Source: an uncultured Mycoplasmatota bacterium (lineage in GTDB: Bacteria; Bacillota_I; Bacilli_A; RF39; UBA660). From it: DNA of 63,528 bases. Below are positions 16,366 through 34,972 of the stretch, piece after piece (the first letter of the stretch is position 1; every line of letters begins with the position of its first letter). The notes under the pieces are model-generated. The model was not told the DNA's origin. It ran no database searches and worked only from the letters and a program-made list of their open reading frames with translations. The position numbers and the translations under genes are program-made. The stretch covers positions 1 to 63,528 of the forward strand of contig URBY01000002.1 of assembly GCA_900546245.1 (NCBI GenBank), given 5' to 3'.

Positions 16366-18636
16366 ATGGCAAAAAAGAAACAAAAGAAAAAAGAAAATAA
16401 TTCTGGCTTTAAATATCCAATAGAGATAAAGGGTATTGTTTTTATCGTTATTGCAATTATTGGCTTTTTAGGATTTAAAGCAAATATTCTTGGAACGATT
16501 ATCAAAGGATTTGCAATGTTTTTAATGGGATCATTTGATTTTATAGTATTATTAATAATGCTTATTTCAGGTTTTTATATGCTTGTTAAAAGAGAAAATC
16601 CTAAATATTTTTCATCTAGAATGATAGGAATATATATTTTTTTAGTGGGTTTATTATCACTTGCTCATTTAAACTATTTAGATGTAAATAGTACTTTCTT
16701 TGATACAATGAAAAATACAATAGATGAAGTAATAAAATGTATTAATACTAAGGTAAGTTTTGCTGGTGGTGGAGTAATAGGTGCATTCTTTATATCAATA
16801 TTTTATTACTTACTTGGTAAGATGGGAAGTATAATAGTTATTAGTGTACTTATGTTAATTGGTGTTATTTTAGTATCAGATTTATCTATTAGTGATGCAA
16901 TTAGTAAAATAAGAGAAAAATTAAAGAGAAAGAAAGAAACATCTAATGAAGAAGATGATGAATATGAAAATGAAGAAGATGAAGAAGACTATGATGAAGA
17001 AACTGGTGAAGTAATAGATAAAAAAGCAAAAAGAAAAGCAGAAAAAGAAAAAATTAAACTAGCTAAAGCAAAAAAACTTTCTTATATAGAAGAAGATGAT
17101 GAAGAAGAGGAAGAAGTCATTCCTAAAAAACAAGAAGAAAAAAAGGAAGAAACTCCTGCTTCTAATAAGTATTTAAATTATGTACTTCCAGATCTTAGTA
17201 TACTAGATGCTGGTGATAATAATTCTAAGAAAAAAGGTCAAGCAAAAAATGAAGCTATGATTTTAGATAATGCTAAAAGACTAGATGGTGTACTTAGAGA
17301 CTTTGGTATAACAGCAAAAGTAAAAACTGCCCACGTTGGACCATCAATCACACAGTATGAATTAGAAGTTAAATCAGGAACAAAAATTAGTAAAATTAAA
17401 GCATTAAGTAGTGAAATTGCTCTTGCACTAGCAGCAACAGATGTAAGAATACAAGCACCTATTCCAGGCAAAAGTACTGTTGGTGTTGAATTACCTAATA
17501 AAATATCTACAGGTGTATCATTCTATGAAATGATGCAAGAACTTTTAAAAGAAAATTCTGATAATAAACTTCGTGTTGCACTTGGTAAAGATATAATGGG
17601 ACAACCTATATTTATGGATATTAATAAAACACCACACCTTTTAATCGCAGGATCAACTGGTTCAGGTAAATCAGTATGTGTTAACTGTATTATAAGTTCA
17701 ATACTTATGAGAGCAAAGCCAGATGAAGTTAAATTAATAATGGTTGACCCTAAAAAGGTTGAACTTACTATGTATAACTGTATTCCGCATTTATTAATGC
17801 CAGTTATAACAGATCCTAAGAAAGCATCAGCAGCACTTCAAAAAGTTGTTGATGAAATGGAAAAAAGATATGAATTATTTAGTGATTCAAAAACTAAAAA
17901 TATAGAAGGTTATAATGCTAAATTAAGAGCACAAAATGAATTATTACCAGTAGAATCGCAAAAACCATTATTACCTTATATTGTAGTATTAATTGATGAA
18001 CTTGCTGATTTAATGTTAGTTGCATCAAAAGAAGTAGAACAATCAATAATGAGAATTACACAAATGGCTAGAGCTGCAGGTATACATTTAATAGTAGCAA
18101 CTCAAAGACCGTCAACAGATGTAATTACAGGTGTTGTAAAAGCAAATATACCATCTCGTATATCATTTGCGGTATCATCTCAAATAGATTCAAGAACAAT
18201 ACTAGATCATCCTGGTGCTGAAAAATTACTAGGTAAAGGTGATATGCTTTATGCACCAATGGGAGCAACTTCTCCAACAAGAATACAAGGTGCATTTATT
18301 TCAGAAGAAGATGTTGAAAAGATTGCAAATAAAACAATTGAACAACAAAAAGCAGTATATGATGAAAATTTTATGAAACTTGATGAAGTTGGAAGTAAAA
18401 CAAGTATTGATAAAGATGATGTTGATAATGATGACCCATTATATAATGATATAGTTGAGTTTGTTATATCAACTAGAAAGGCAAGTGCATCATTACTTCA
18501 AAGAAGATTTAAACTTGGGTATAACAGAGCAGCAAGAATAATTGATTTACTTGAAGAAAGAGGTATTATTGGACCTGCTAATGGATCAAAACCAAGAGAA
18601 GTATTAGTAGATAATGACGAAGAAGATGAAGAATGA
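16366..18636 (+). CDS. ftsK: DNA translocase FtsK/SpoIIIE
   Basis: N-terminal TM segments, an acidic linker, Walker A GSTGSGKS, and a gamma wHTH domain (LLQRRFKLGYNRAARIIDLLEERGIIG). Confidence 0.95.
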   Translation: MAKKKQKKKENNSGFKYPIEIKGIVFIVIAIIGFLGFKANILGTIIKGFAMFLMGSFDFIVLLIMLISGFYMLVKRENPKYFSSRMIGIYIFLVGLLSLAHLNYLDVNSTFFDTMKNTIDEVIKCINTKVSFAGGGVIGAFFISIFYYLLGKMGSIIVISVLMLIGVILVSDLSISDAISKIREKLKRKKETSNEEDDEYENEEDEEDYDEETGEVIDKKAKRKAEKEKIKLAKAKKLSYIEEDDEEEEEVIPKKQEEKKEETPASNKYLNYVLPDLSILDAGDNNSKKKGQAKNEAMILDNAKRLDGVLRDFGITAKVKTAHVGPSITQYELEVKSGTKISKIKALSSEIALALAATDVRIQAPIPGKSTVGVELPNKISTGVSFYEMMQELLKENSDNKLRVALGKDIMGQPIFMDINKTPHLLIAGSTGSGKSVCVNCIISSILMRAKPDEVKLIMVDPKKVELTMYNCIPHLLMPVITDPKKASAALQKVVDEMEKRYELFSDSKTKNIEGYNAKLRAQNELLPVESQKPLLPYIVVLIDELADLMLVASKEVEQSIMRITQMARAAGIHLIVATQRPSTDVITGVVKANIPSRISFAVSSQIDSRTILDHPGAEKLLGKGDMLYAPMGATSPTRIQGAFISEEDVEKIANKTIEQQKAVYDENFMKLDEVGSKTSIDKDDVDNDDPLYNDIVEFVISTRKASASLLQRRFKLGYNRAARIIDLLEERGIIGPANGSKPREVLVDNDEEDEE

Positions 18637-18709
18637 TTCATCTTTTTTTGTTTATAGGAATATTTTGATAATTTACCTTTTTTCTTTTACCAACAGGAAT
18701 AAAAATCTC

Positions 18710-18740
18710 TTGACAAAACACTTCTGGGGGGGGGTATACT
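18710..18740 (+). promoter_or_regulatory. Promoter (TTGACA ... TATACT) with a G9 homopolymer in a 19-nt spacer
   Basis: TTGACA at 18710-18715, G9 at 18726-18734, and TATACT at 18735-18740. Lies 35 nt upstream of the pilin-like gene start. Confidence 0.6.
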
Positions 18741-18774
18741 TAATATAGTAAGTAGAAAGTAGAGGGAGTAATAA

Positions 18775-19905
18775 ATGAATAAAAATAAGGGATTTACATT
18801 AATAGAGTTATTAGCTGTAATAGTCTTGCTTGCAATTCTTATGGTAATAGCAGTACCAAAAATATTAAATGTAATAGAAAATTCTAGGAAAAGTGCAACA
18901 GAAAGCAGTATTAAACTAGTAAAAGATGCGATAAAAACGCAAGTAACATCTGGAAGTATAATGGGAACAAATTTTACAAGTGATGAAAGTGGATGTTATA
19001 CATTTAACTTTGATGATCAAACAAGTGGCAACGCAAAGGAGTTACAATTAAAAAATAAAGAAAATATAACAGGAACAATAAAATATTGTAATGGAAATTT
19101 TACGAATAATACACTTTCCTTTGATGGACAAGATATGAGTAGTATAGTATGTAAAAGAGCAACCACATTACATACAGAAAATTGTACACAAACAGATAAT
19201 ACATATTATTGTTCAGGAGCAGGTTTCGCAGGAAAAACTATAACATATGGAACAGTACCAGGTAAAGAATTAAAATCAGGAGATGCATTTGATTGTGATG
19301 TAAATGGCGATGGAACATATGATGAAAATACAGAAAGATTTTATTATGTAACAGATATGAATGATAGTACAGCAGTATTAATATACTATAATAATGTATC
19401 AAAAGGAAAACCAAGTGATAGCACAACATATGCATATGATAAAAGTGGAAAAAATAATAATGGGCCTGTGACAGCAATAGAACAACTACCAAGTATAAGC
19501 AATTGGGAAAATATTAGTTTAATAAATAGTGAGAGATCATTAATGACTGAAACAGGAATGACTAGTACTGCAGCAGGTCCTTTACCAAATAATTTTAATT
19601 ATGCAGAAAAGGCAGCAAGATTACTTACTGTTCAAGAATTAAATAAAGCATGTAATATAACTGTAGAAAATATGACAAGAGGAGAACTAGATAAATGCAA
19701 TTTCTTACTTGAAAATACAAAATATTCAAAAGCTGATAAAGGAAATTGGGGATATTGGTTAGAAAATCCTCGTACTGAATATTCTGATCCAGTATGGGCT
19801 GTATATGGTTGTAGTCGCAATGTTAATAATTTTTCAGTTGATAATTATAATGATATTGGAGTTCGTCCAGTTATTGAAGTTCTAAAATCTAACATAAAAT
19901 ATTAA
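18775..19905 (+). CDS. Large type IV pilin-like protein with Cys-rich C-terminal domain
   Basis: KGFTLIELLAVIVLLAILMVIAVP prepilin motif. The 376-aa protein ends in a ...WGYWLENPRTEY...IGVRPVIEV motif, reminiscent of a surface-protein domain common in Firmicutes (recalled as DUF6273-like). Confidence 0.7.
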   Translation: MNKNKGFTLIELLAVIVLLAILMVIAVPKILNVIENSRKSATESSIKLVKDAIKTQVTSGSIMGTNFTSDESGCYTFNFDDQTSGNAKELQLKNKENITGTIKYCNGNFTNNTLSFDGQDMSSIVCKRATTLHTENCTQTDNTYYCSGAGFAGKTITYGTVPGKELKSGDAFDCDVNGDGTYDENTERFYYVTDMNDSTAVLIYYNNVSKGKPSDSTTYAYDKSGKNNNGPVTAIEQLPSISNWENISLINSERSLMTETGMTSTAAGPLPNNFNYAEKAARLLTVQELNKACNITVENMTRGELDKCNFLLENTKYSKADKGNWGYWLENPRTEYSDPVWAVYGCSRNVNNFSVDNYNDIGVRPVIEVLKSNIKY

Positions 19906-20046: not shown

Positions 20047-20901
20047 ATGAATGATGTTTTTAATAATGTTATGACATTTATTAATAAAAATACATATTTA
20101 TTAATAGGAATATGTGTATTTTTAATACTTGTTTTAATTGGTTATCTTATTGATAATAGCGTAAAATCAAAAAGAGTAAGAAAAGATATAAAAAATAAGG
20201 ATCAGGTTCCTGAAAATATAAAAGAAGATATAATTAAAGAGGCAAATGAAAAGAAAGAAAAAGAATTAAATGTACAAATAGAAGAACCAAAGAAAGAAGA
20301 TATAATTAACCAAAATAATCAAAATATGGAAGTTAATGAAGATGAGGCTCCACTTAATTTAGATGCATCTTTAAGTATAGATAAACCTTTAAATTTGGAA
20401 AAAGATCCTTCACTTGATGATGTTAATAGTCCACTTAATATTGATAATAATATAAATGAACCTTTAAGTTTAGATACAAATTCATTATTTGATGAAGAAA
20501 ATAAACCAAGTGTAGCATTAGGTAATGATATTTTAGAAGATAATCTATCTTTGGATAATTCTGAAAAACCTATAGTAGAGTCTTCTATTAGTTCAGATCA
20601 AGATCCAGATGCTAATATAATGTTATCTAATAGTAAAGATGGGCTATATAGTAATGATAAAACGTTATTAGAAATATTATCAGAAGTTGATAGTTCTAAA
20701 TTGAATAATAGTGTTGATAATAAAACAATATTTGATAATAAACCTAGTATTGAAATAAATACTAATGTTGAAAAAGAAAAAGTTGAAATTGAACCAAAAA
20801 ATTCCACTGACTCTAGTGATAACGAACTAGATAACATAATGAAAAAGTTATCTTCAATGAATAACTCTGATGATGAAGATAATTATACGAATATATTTTA
20901 A
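20047..20901 (+). CDS. Membrane-anchored acidic low-complexity protein with PL(N/S)(L/I)D repeats
   Basis: One N-terminal TM. The rest is D/E/N/S-rich with repeated PLNLD, PLNLE, PLNID and PLSLD. Confidence 0.45.
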   Translation: MNDVFNNVMTFINKNTYLLIGICVFLILVLIGYLIDNSVKSKRVRKDIKNKDQVPENIKEDIIKEANEKKEKELNVQIEEPKKEDIINQNNQNMEVNEDEAPLNLDASLSIDKPLNLEKDPSLDDVNSPLNIDNNINEPLSLDTNSLFDEENKPSVALGNDILEDNLSLDNSEKPIVESSISSDQDPDANIMLSNSKDGLYSNDKTLLEILSEVDSSKLNNSVDNKTIFDNKPSIEINTNVEKEKVEIEPKNSTDSSDNELDNIMKKLSSMNNSDDEDNYTNIF

Positions 20902-20988
20902 AAAGGGTAAAACCTTTTTATTTTGTACGAATGTATTTAATGTGATATAATTTTGTTGTATAGAAAAAATTATAAATTGGAGCGAATT

Positions 20989-21687
20989 ATGAAAAAAATA
21001 AAAGTATTTATGTTTCTCTTCTCAATTTTATTACTTTCTGGTTGTTCAGTAGAATATGATCTTACATTAAATGATGATTTAACTGTTAATGAAAAAGTAG
21101 TTGCAACAGAAAAAACTAAAAGAATGGAGTCATATACAAGGCAGAAGGACAAACAAGCTGTAAATTACTTGTTTGATATGTATAAAAGACCAAATGAGGA
21201 TATTTCTATAACATCAAGAGAAAATAATAGTGATACTATTGCGGTTGCTTTAACACAACATGATTCTATTGAAGATTATGCATCTAAATTTAAAAGTGAT
21301 ATCTTTGATGAAATTAAAATTACTAAAGACAATGATGTTATTACATTTAAAGCGGTTCAAAGTAATTTATTATCATCAGATGGTACATCAAACCTTTTAT
21401 ATGATGATGTTAAAGTAAATATAACTATTCCGTTTGAGGTAGTAAAAAATAATGCAGATAGTGTTAGTAAAAATACTTATACATGGAATATAAATAAATC
21501 AAGTGAATATAAAACTATTGAATTTTCTTATAAAGAAAATATAAAGAAAGATAAAATTAATGTTAGTGTAAATAATAAAGTTTATAATATAAATTATGGA
21601 GTTGTTATAGCAGTCAGTATTGTTATAATAATTGGTGCGATTGTATTATTTGTATACATAAAAAACAAGAAAAATAATGTGGTTTAG
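20989..21687 (+). CDS. Lipoprotein with C-terminal TM anchor
   Basis: Lipobox LLLSGC after a signal peptide, plus a C-terminal hydrophobic helix and basic tail. GGAG RBS before the ATG at 20989. Confidence 0.55.
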   Translation: MKKIKVFMFLFSILLLSGCSVEYDLTLNDDLTVNEKVVATEKTKRMESYTRQKDKQAVNYLFDMYKRPNEDISITSRENNSDTIAVALTQHDSIEDYASKFKSDIFDEIKITKDNDVITFKAVQSNLLSSDGTSNLLYDDVKVNITIPFEVVKNNADSVSKNTYTWNINKSSEYKTIEFSYKENIKKDKINVSVNNKVYNINYGVVIAVSIVIIIGAIVLFVYIKNKKNNVV

Positions 21688-33631: not shown

Positions 33632-34972
33632 ATGGATAAAAGAAATATGCCATATAGTTTAGAAGCAGAACAATCTGTTCTGGGTGCAGCTTTCATTTCA
33701 AAATATGCACTTCAAAAGATATGTGATGAACTAGAATCAGATGATTTTTATCTTGATTCACATAGTAAGATTTTTGATGCTTTATCAGAACTAAATGCAG
33801 AAGGTAAGCCAATAGATATTACAATTGTAACAAATAAACTTGAAACAAATAAAACATTATCTAGTGTTGGTAATATTGAATATTTAGTTGAAATAATTAA
33901 TTCAGTACCAAGTGCATCTAATGTTGATTATTATATTAATATTGTTCATGAAAAAGCAATTTTAAGAAGATTAATTAATGTTTCAAATGATATTGCAAAT
34001 GAATCAATGATTGAAAATGGAAATGTTAATGATATATTAGATGGCGCTGAAATGAAGATTTTAAATGTTGTTAAAACAAGAAAATCGTCAGAGTTTCATA
34101 AGATTCAAGATGTAGTATTTAAAGCACAAGAAAACTTAGAAAAATTAAGTAACCAAAGAGGAGAAATAACAGGACTTCCAACAGGTTTTTATGAAATAGA
34201 TAAATTAACAAGTGGATTACATGAAAATGAACTTATTATAATTGCGGCTCGTCCTGCTATGGGTAAAACTGCATTTGCTTTAAATGTTGCGACAAATATT
34301 GCTAAAACAACAGATAAGGCAGTCGCATTATTCAACCTAGAAATGAATGCGGAACAATTAGTAAACCGTATGTTTGCATCAGTTGCGCAAATAGAAGGTT
34401 CTAAGCTTAGAACAGGAAAACTTGATAATAATGACTGGAGAAAATTAAGTGAAGGAATTAGTCAACTTGCTGATACTCATATTTATATAGATGATACTCC
34501 TGGTATAACTATTGGTGAAATAAGAAGTAAATGTAGAAGACTTGCAGCATCAAAAGAAGGTCTTGGAATAGTTATCATAGACTACTTACAACTTATTTCA
34601 GGTAGTAGTAAATATGCTGGAAATAGACAACAAGAAGTATCGGAAATATCAAGAAGTTTAAAAACAATGGCACTAGAACTTGGTGTACCAGTAATTGCAC
34701 TTGCACAGTTATCACGTGCTGTTGAAGGAAGAGATGATAAACGTCCAATAATGAGTGACTTAAGAGAATCAGGTTCTATAGAACAAGATGCAGATATAGT
34801 TGCATTCCTATATAGAGATGATTATTATAATAAAGAAGCTAGAATGGATGGTAATATAAGTATTAGTGAATTTATTGTGGCTAAACACCGTAATGGTCCA
34901 ACTGCTACAATAGAATTATTGTTTAAGAAAAATACTAGTACTTTTTCAAATTATAGTAAAGAAGAAGAGTAG
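33632..34972 (+). CDS. dnaB: Replicative DNA helicase (DnaB family; DnaC in Bacillus nomenclature)
   Basis: PYSLEAEQSVLGA, Walker A ARPAMGKTAF, and DYLQLI... Confidence 0.96.
   Translation: MDKRNMPYSLEAEQSVLGAAFISKYALQKICDELESDDFYLDSHSKIFDALSELNAEGKPIDITIVTNKLETNKTLSSVGNIEYLVEIINSVPSASNVDYYINIVHEKAILRRLINVSNDIANESMIENGNVNDILDGAEMKILNVVKTRKSSEFHKIQDVVFKAQENLEKLSNQRGEITGLPTGFYEIDKLTSGLHENELIIIAARPAMGKTAFALNVATNIAKTTDKAVALFNLEMNAEQLVNRMFASVAQIEGSKLRTGKLDNNDWRKLSEGISQLADTHIYIDDTPGITIGEIRSKCRRLAASKEGLGIVIIDYLQLISGSSKYAGNRQQEVSEISRSLKTMALELGVPVIALAQLSRAVEGRDDKRPIMSDLRESGSIEQDADIVAFLYRDDYYNKEARMDGNISISEFIVAKHRNGPTATIELLFKKNTSTFSNYSKEEE

Follow-up and report, generated by a model that had tools for sequence, protein, structure and literature searches.

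A poly-G tract in the promoter spacer of a pilin-like gene as a candidate contingency locus, and its promoter family, in an uncultured gut member of the Bacilli

Does the run of nine G residues that lies between the -35 and -10 hexamers of a pilin-like gene in an uncultured gut bacterium act as a length-variable switch of that gene? The question is raised by a 63,528-nt stretch of the Mycoplasmatota assembly GCA_900546245.1 (contig URBY01000002.1, GTDB lineage Bacilli_A; RF39; UBA660). This whole stretch is called the window below; it is contig C2 of a genome of 1.23 Mb in 69 contigs, with 24.7% GC and an estimated completeness of ~94%. An earlier reading of the window from its letters (the original prediction) had proposed that slippage in the tract makes the pilin-like surface protein phase variable. 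From the evidence below we consider, with a probability of roughly 0.7, that a prepilin-type surface gene is preceded here by a contingency promoter, with the G9 tract as its hypermutable part.

The tract is placed exactly as the original prediction had described it, in the spacer of a near-consensus promoter of the sigma-A type. On the plus strand, where all features from the ftsK terminator to the pilin-like gene lie, the order is ctc-TTGACA-AAACACTTCT-GGGGGGGGG-TATACT: the -35 hexamer TTGACA (18710-18715) is a perfect consensus match, the -10 hexamer TATACT (18735-18740) ends 34 nt 5' of the prepilin-type gene, and the 19-nt spacer between them consists of a non-G part (AAACACTTCT, 18716-18725) and a terminal G9 homopolymer (GGGGGGGGG, 18726-18734). 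The remark that no other G run exceeds five also holds: the window (63.5 kb) contains no other G or C run of at least 6, the next longest being four G5 runs, and C runs of at least 5 are absent. Two independent assemblies (locus L052 from ERZ28634857 and locus L053 from SRR5056660) are 100% identical to the window over FtsK, the G9 promoter and the start of the pilin gene, which argues against an assembly artefact.

The same promoter design recurs across the genome, which carries 12 copies of a cassette TTGACA-N10-G(6-10)-TATACT plus one decayed copy; TTGACA is unchanged in 12 of these 13. The consensus of the 11 copies with long runs is TTGACA-AAAYRCTYYY-G(9-10)-TATACTTA, and the twelfth copy (on C54) has G6. 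A G9 had been judged unlikely by composition, and the genome bears this out: it has 11 G/C runs of at least 9 against an expectation of 0.015 (order 0) to 0.055 (order 1), and all 11 fall inside the cassette. The histogram of G/C run lengths shows a gap at 8 (four runs of 6, one of 7, none of 8, eight of 9 and three of 10). The genome thus commits all its long G/C runs to one promoter design, at about one copy per 100 kb. Every cassette copy lies directly 3' of the terminator of an unrelated gene and is followed by a 5' untranslated region (5'UTR) of ~28-35 nt with a strong ribosome-binding site. The cassettes precede two families of surface proteins, namely pilin-like proteins and membrane-anchored proteins with a Gp10_C domain (the K family). 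Since the loci share a repeated 5'UTR and 5' coding sequence, many copies lie <100 nt from contig ends; the breaks fall in this repeated sequence and not in the tract. Where the original prediction dealt with a single locus, there are thus 12-13 module copies, two gene families, a 19-nt spacer mode and a pilin family linked to a diversity-generating retroelement (DGR).

Two other G runs of the genome deserve mention. The decayed cassette, at the right end of C13 (~33700-33843, minus strand) before a K-family gene, has TTGGCA, G5 and a 15-nt spacer, and may be a locked-off or dying locus. At C22:998-1004, immediately 5' of a small ComGC-like pilin gene (MSKKAFTMVELLA...), a G7 run (read as C7 on the plus strand) serves as the ribosome-binding region, a use of a G run that differs from the promoter cassette.

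Next, tract lengths were compared between independent assemblies, which were reached via identical neighbouring proteins (CdaA, FtsK and one K-family protein); an exact-protein look-up returned no match for the window pilin protein or for two K-family proteins. A scan of a metagenome collection with a pattern tolerant of any tract length added 35 further copies on 29 human-gut contigs. Among the 51 copies from this genome and from human-gut assemblies, 38 have G9, nine G10, three G8 and one G6. Outside the tract, the spacer measures 10 nt in 50 of the 51 and differs by substitutions only. When the copies were grouped by their unique upstream flanks, six of the 12 orthologous groups with at least two members were polymorphic in tract length. 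L056 (G9) and L058 (G8), for example, have identical flanks, and the locus type of C14 is found with G10, G9 and G8. Within the module only the G tract is prone to indels, and it is the sole cassette element that varies in length across copies and strains (G6, G8, G9 and G10).

What would a change of tract length do to the promoter? Across the whole genome, cassettes excluded, we counted pairs of TTGACA and a downstream -10-like hexamer with 13-23 nt between them. Ordinary promoters peak sharply at 17 nt, where 51 matches stand above a background of 10-15 (the reversed control gave 19), and the same scan gave no excess at 18 or 19 nt (11 matches each). The sigma-A promoters of this organism are thus conventional, and the usual 19-20 nt of the cassette are off-optimal by 2-3 nt. 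The original prediction had expected the loss of one or two Gs to bring the spacer to its optimum of 17-18 nt; the peak supports the loss of two. Slipped-strand mispairing at replication would add Gs to the tract or remove them, and the number of Gs would set the distance between the hexamers: 19 nt with G9, 20 nt with G10, 18 nt with G8 and 17 nt with G7. Given a sigma-A preference for 17 nt, the usual G9 state and G10 are predicted to be low or off, G8 to be intermediate and G7 to be fully on, an assignment that draws on the genome's own optimum and on the precedents discussed below. Since each gene has its own module, the genes could switch independently, which would give combinatorial variation of the surface.

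The design is not confined to this genome. The exact cassette is species-specific, with no match in relatives beyond its own genome, and a looser pattern (TTGACA, 6-13 nt, G of at least 7, 0-5 nt, TAWAMT) has matches in six of 12 congeneric species and in 16 of the 151 genera in the family. A reversed-pattern control gave no match in any genome of the exact-cassette, genus and family searches. Several relatives carry many copies that differ within the genome only in G number: G162 has 13 copies with G8-G13, G124 has 10, G152 and G144 have four each, and G174 has copies with G11, G12 and G13. By spacer length, the 57 copies of relatives include eight at 17 nt, 12 at 18 nt, 21 at 19 nt and 10 at 20 nt; the 19-nt mode shows that a default 2 nt above the optimum is not peculiar to this genome. 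The genes downstream include pilin-like ones, in at least five genera, and genes for further membrane or secreted proteins. Across species representatives of all prokaryotes, with at least G9 required, at least 118 loci match, and ~16 chance matches are estimated under uniform composition. Among the matches listed, most belong to uncultured gut Bacilli and Clostridia, Saccharibacteria, Treponema, Selenomonadales and Leptotrichiaceae, most precede genes for signal-peptide proteins, lipoproteins or membrane proteins, and the spacer mode is 18-19 nt. We also noticed, among the matches listed as L095-L212, a set that includes chance matches from high-GC genomes, that 17-nt spacers (6) are rarer than 16-nt (16) or 18-nt (28) ones. 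If real, this would mean that majority states avoid the spacer optimum across many lineages.

Several observations weigh against a contingency promoter. The length variation that the proposed phase variability would require is seen in the cassette family, in which only the G tract varies in length, and not at the locus for which it was proposed: the window locus has G9 in all three assemblies available (the window, L052 and L053). The tract lengths cluster tightly around one mode, G9, which 75% of the 51 copies have, and a G7 (17-nt) allele is absent from those 51 copies; an assembly consensus gives the majority tract length only. The recurrent 19-nt mode could mean that selection favours 19 nt as a working length, in which case it would not be off. 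The genome also encodes intact MutS and MutL, so slippage rates may be moderate; a loss of mismatch repair was rejected as the source of the tracts, both genes being present with open reading frames. Slippage at a useful rate and control of transcription by the tract, with G7 as the probable on length, are what we infer.

The most serious competitor takes the recurrent mode at face value: the 19-nt spacer would be a functional design that needs a trans-acting factor, either a MerR-style, DNA-distorting activator or a protein that recognizes the G tract; the G run would serve as a structural or recognition element, and the G8 and G10 alleles would be mutational noise of no regulatory meaning. 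Spacers of 19-20 nt are a hallmark of promoters activated by MerR-type regulators. G9 predominates at almost all loci and in all samples, the 19-nt mode is kept in 21 other species despite differing G numbers and non-G lengths, and the broad scan, among the matches listed, again shows a 19-nt mode with a roughly symmetric spread. Against this, the spacer lacks dyad symmetry and is not spanned by any inverted repeat, between genera the G run is conserved and the non-G spacer sequence is not, and no candidate regulator was identified. Copies within one genome (G162, G174 and G124) differ only in G number and span spacers of 17-20 nt, which also speaks against it. An A-form-like geometry of the G tract that makes 19 nt equivalent to 17 nt is retained only within this explanation, and both are opposed by the precedents tested, whose spacers are optimal at 17 nt despite their G tracts (PMC7864442). 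On balance we regard an over-spaced, factor-dependent promoter as unlikely.

It is also conceivable that the G run has no role, and that the cassette was spread among paralogous surface-protein genes by duplication and gene conversion and owes its uniformity to recombination. Recombination clearly shuffles the cassette, as the flank shared by C67 and L078 and the break of orthologue homology at the ATG (both described below) demonstrate, and the C13 copy with TTGGCA and G5 has decayed. Yet unselected runs of G9-G10 should erode fast at 25% GC, and long runs persist in 12 copies; 21 other species keep long G runs in different cassettes, always abutting the -10 hexamer, while no comparable run exists elsewhere in the genome and the reversed-pattern controls are at 0. 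A neutral passenger is therefore improbable, more so than the factor-dependent design. Least probable by far is a sequencing or assembly artefact, such as poly-G read ends from two-colour chemistry or a chimeric contig. The proximity of many cassette copies to contig ends and the mosaic structure of the window pilin gene relative to other strains could raise such a suspicion, but the breaks lie outside the tract, the tract is internal with unique flanks and is fully reproduced at this locus in the two other assemblies, and it recurs in 39 more copies in other human-gut assemblies, which come from different studies. A contingency promoter with a slipping G tract remains our preferred reading.

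The promoter is part of a portable module. Homology breakpoints relative to other strains delimit a promoter and 5'UTR unit of 125 nt (18649-18774). Against L049-L051, in which a nucleoside phosphorylase (PNP) gene directly follows FtsK, homology stops at 18648; against eight strains that have a pilin orthologue (90-92% identity) after a reverse transcriptase (RT), with L040, L041, L043 and L044 among them, homology starts at the ATG (18775). The RT-linked orthologues of these eight strains lack both the G tract and the module, and the module is also absent from strains in which FtsK is directly followed by the PNP gene. The C67 type of upstream flank is followed here by a pilin gene and in L078 by one of the K family; in the aligned copies, an A/T-rich block 5' of the -35 hexamer (tttttcttttaccaacaggaataaaaatctc, 18678-18709) is common to the cassette copy on C67 and to L078. 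The module begins directly after the intrinsic terminator of ftsK (18620-18649), recognized by its inverted repeat and RNA fold, whose hairpin (AAGAAGATGAA / TTCATCTTTTT, 18620-18647, then a T run) overlaps the ftsK stop codon; this terminator should insulate the promoter from read-through. Transcription is predicted, from the position of TATACT, to start at ~18747, and a ribosome-binding site GAGGGAG (18762-18768) lies 6 nt before the ATG. A consensus promoter scan limited to 16-18-nt spacers found no alternative promoter between ftsK and the ATG. Three other kinds of element were considered for the region and rejected: a riboswitch or other known RNA element, for which Rfam gave only a chance-level match (E = 0.74); an invertible promoter, as no inverted repeats flank the promoter; and a G-quadruplex, which by reasoning a single G9 cannot form intramolecularly.

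The ftsK locus itself is variable between strains, as a comparison of 18636-18775 with L049-L051 and L039/L046 shows. In some, FtsK is directly followed by the nucleoside phosphorylase gene, which in this genome lies on C22; some strains are without any pilin gene upstream of the cdaA cluster and have NrdD and NrdG there. In the window, a 284-aa acidic membrane-anchored protein (20047-20901) and a 244-aa LppM-like lipoprotein (20953-21687) are encoded downstream, and their genes are placed outside the poly-G unit because they are kept beside cdaA in all strains, with the pilin gene or without it. The window pilin gene is itself a mosaic: its identity to the RT-linked orthologues is ~88% in the first 480 nt and 98-100% from about nt 600, with a crossover zone at 19315-19435, and the RT-linked paralogue C1a of this genome (C1:80148-79003) shows the mirror-image pattern relative to the eight strains. 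This is either a real reciprocal recombination, which would imply a large rearrangement, or a reciprocal assembly switch. Misassembly is less favoured since the longest exact run shared by the two genes is only 51 nt. The poly-G finding is independent of this question, as L052 and L053 confirm the promoter at the ftsK locus together with the initial 213 nt of the gene.

The product of the window gene agrees with the surface pilin-like protein of the original prediction. The gene (18775-19905) encodes a 376-aa type IV pilin-like protein (PF07963, 35 bits; TIGR02532, 30.8 bits against a cut-off of 16.3) with a class III signal MNKNKG|FTLIELL (MNKNKG|FTLIELLAVIVLLAILMVIAVP; G at -1, F at +1, E at +5, then a hydrophobic helix), a Cys-rich middle part and a C-terminal DUF6273-like domain that ends in GVRPVIEVLKSNIKY. 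A PDB profile search with this protein returned no meaningful relative, and an AlphaFold2 model built from eight paralogues and orthologues was discarded (mean pLDDT, the predicted local distance difference test score, 36.6). At least 10 pilin-like paralogues are encoded in the genome, with a common C-terminus GVRP(A/V)IEVLKSNIEY, together with a prepilin peptidase (Peptidase_A24, C45:417-779) and a T2SSE/PilB-type ATPase (C27:13006-14145) that adjoins another pilin-like paralogue. The K-family proteins are 234-299 aa long, start with MKINNKGYASTIIMFSILTLFL... and consist of an N-terminal membrane anchor, a coiled-coil-like stretch and then the Gp10_C domain, which is baseplate- or tail-fibre-like (PF21939, E = 2.7e-14). 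Members are encoded on C4, C25, C54, C13, C19, C32 and C50 of the genome and at L085, L075 and L064; they are often in tandem, each with its own cassette, as in L085 with three genes and three cassettes. A second homopolymer is present in the K family: an A5-A7 run, of a length that differs from copy to copy, lies between ribosome-binding site and start codon. A third type of 5'UTR, cut by contig ends in this genome, leads in other assemblies to a pilin-like protein starting with MNKNKGFTLIELL....

The pilin-like family is also linked to a retroelement. A complete DGR lies outside the window at C1:79003-82957 (minus strand), in the order pilin-like C-terminus, template repeat, 138-aa protein, bAvd, reverse transcriptase and a 381-aa pilin-like gene; C1:80299-82143 encodes the 138-aa protein (with a weak MutS_I match), bAvd and the reverse transcriptase. 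The template repeat is 107 nt long (~C1:82323-82429), rich in AAC codons and identical in L041. In the paralogues C1a, C1b, C20, C23 and C40 the differences from the template are nearly all at template adenines, and these five or more dispersed paralogues with adenine-specific differences indicate a multi-target DGR. L070 has a G9 promoter together with a variable region that shows 17 mismatches at adenines and two at other bases, so one gene can carry both a poly-G promoter and a DGR variable region. In the window pilin gene the region homologous to the variable region (19767-19873) has 15 mismatches at A and 29 elsewhere and is invariant in seven strains; as the divergence has no adenine specificity and the region does not vary among these strains, the window gene is not a current DGR target.

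These findings allow a tentative extension of the contingency-promoter reading, which we put forward as possible and rather less probable than that reading itself: a two-layer system of surface diversification in a genome-reduced, possibly partner-dependent gut bacterium, with poly-G choice as one layer and retroelement rewriting as the other. In the first layer, about a dozen insulated portable modules, one or two slippage steps away from the on state, would determine at random the members of the two adhesin families that a given cell displays. In the second, the retroelement would rewrite the ligand-binding tips of pilin-like paralogues, and homologous recombination at the conserved cores of the genes and at the module boundary (ATG) would reshuffle promoters, gene heads and tails from locus to locus. 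On this view, selection would have set the 19-nt default that recurs across genera as a poised-off state, and its recurrence would be no accident.

Phase variation by repeats in promoter spacers is textbook knowledge for a few pathogens (Neisseria, Haemophilus, Bordetella, Treponema and Mycoplasma); to our knowledge it has hardly been considered for uncultured human-gut commensals. Should the tracts switch, the surface that these small-genome Bacilli show to phages, host immunity (immunoglobulin A) or partner cells would change stochastically, the many contig breaks in the metagenome-assembled genomes (MAGs) of these Bacilli would be explained, and consensus MAG sequences would hide relevant variation. 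The signature of TTGACA, a short fixed part, at least G8 and a -10 hexamer finds candidate phase-variable gene sets in metagenomes. The poly-G design precedes putative adhesins, and the retroelement also targets some of these.

How does the system compare with known ones? By its anatomy, rarity, length variation and surface products, it belongs mechanistically to the promoter-spacer contingency loci, the type of porA, tp0126, vlp and fim. In Treponema pallidum, tp0126 has a poly-G tract between -35 and -10 and is transcribed optimally at a 17-nt spacer, and in tprL, whose most common length is G9, a tract of G8 is active while G10 lies near background (PMC7864442). The resemblance to T. pallidum (tp0126; tprE, G, J, F and I; tprL) lies in poly-G tracts of ~7-12 in or at the promoters of paralogous surface genes in a small genome, and, for tprL, in a majority state that is low or off, which is a prediction for the cassette described here. 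The organisms differ in phylum and lifestyle (a spirochaete pathogen versus an uncultured commensal of the Bacilli), and most of the T. pallidum tpr tracts lie just upstream of the start site without a clean -35/-10 spacer, unlike here. T. pallidum also has no shared portable cassette, pilin-like genes or retroelement link, all of which are present here, and its switching and expression effects are measured whereas the present system is known from sequence alone. In Neisseria meningitidis, according to PMC7864442, promoter-region tract length sets the transcription of the surface proteins of porA (poly-G) and opc (poly-C) from high to none, and the porA tract lies between -35 and -10, its G-tract spacer being optimal at 17 nt. 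The shared feature with porA is thus a homopolymer between the -35 and -10 hexamers of a surface-protein promoter; however, porA and opc are single loci of a Gram-negative pathogen as opposed to a 12-copy cassette family, and common porA alleles are at or near the 17-nt optimum as opposed to the 19-nt mode here.

The genome-reduced Mycoplasma hyorhinis, a member of the same broad Bacilli/Mollicutes radiation, has tandem and dispersed vlp genes for surface lipoproteins, each with a highly conserved promoter that carries a poly-A tract between -35 and -10, and these genes switch on and off independently and combinatorially. The tandem array of L085 resembles the vlp cluster. The differences are that vlp has poly-A tracts, lipoproteins with size variation by repeat length and no retroelement, in contrast to the poly-G tracts and the pilin-like and tail-fibre-like proteins here. 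In Bordetella pertussis, a C-stretch in the promoters of fim2 and fim3 slips in length and switches the paralogous fimbrial subunit genes independently; the stretch sets the distance from the BvgA site to the -10 element and its effect is hence activator-dependent. The likeness is that of a homopolymeric C or G stretch in promoters of paralogous fimbrial-type genes, with no known activator here. With the Mtd type of Bordetella phage BPP-1 and with the DGRs of gut Bacteroides the system shares C-terminal variable regions, and genuine DGR targets occur in its pilin-like family. A preprint describes the DGR-diversified proteins of gut Bacteroides as likewise pilus-associated adhesins (bioRxiv 10.1101/2024.11.15.621889). 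Those pili are of type V, unlike the type IV-like pili here, and the window gene is no current target. Our literature search returned no report of poly-G promoters or of pilin-type DGR targets in RF39 or these Bacilli, and none of DGR targets coupled to poly-G promoters. In its multigene layout the system is closest to vlp of M. hyorhinis and tpr of T. pallidum, and it stands out among them by its copy number, the portability of its module, the seemingly poised 19-nt default and the coupling to a retroelement.

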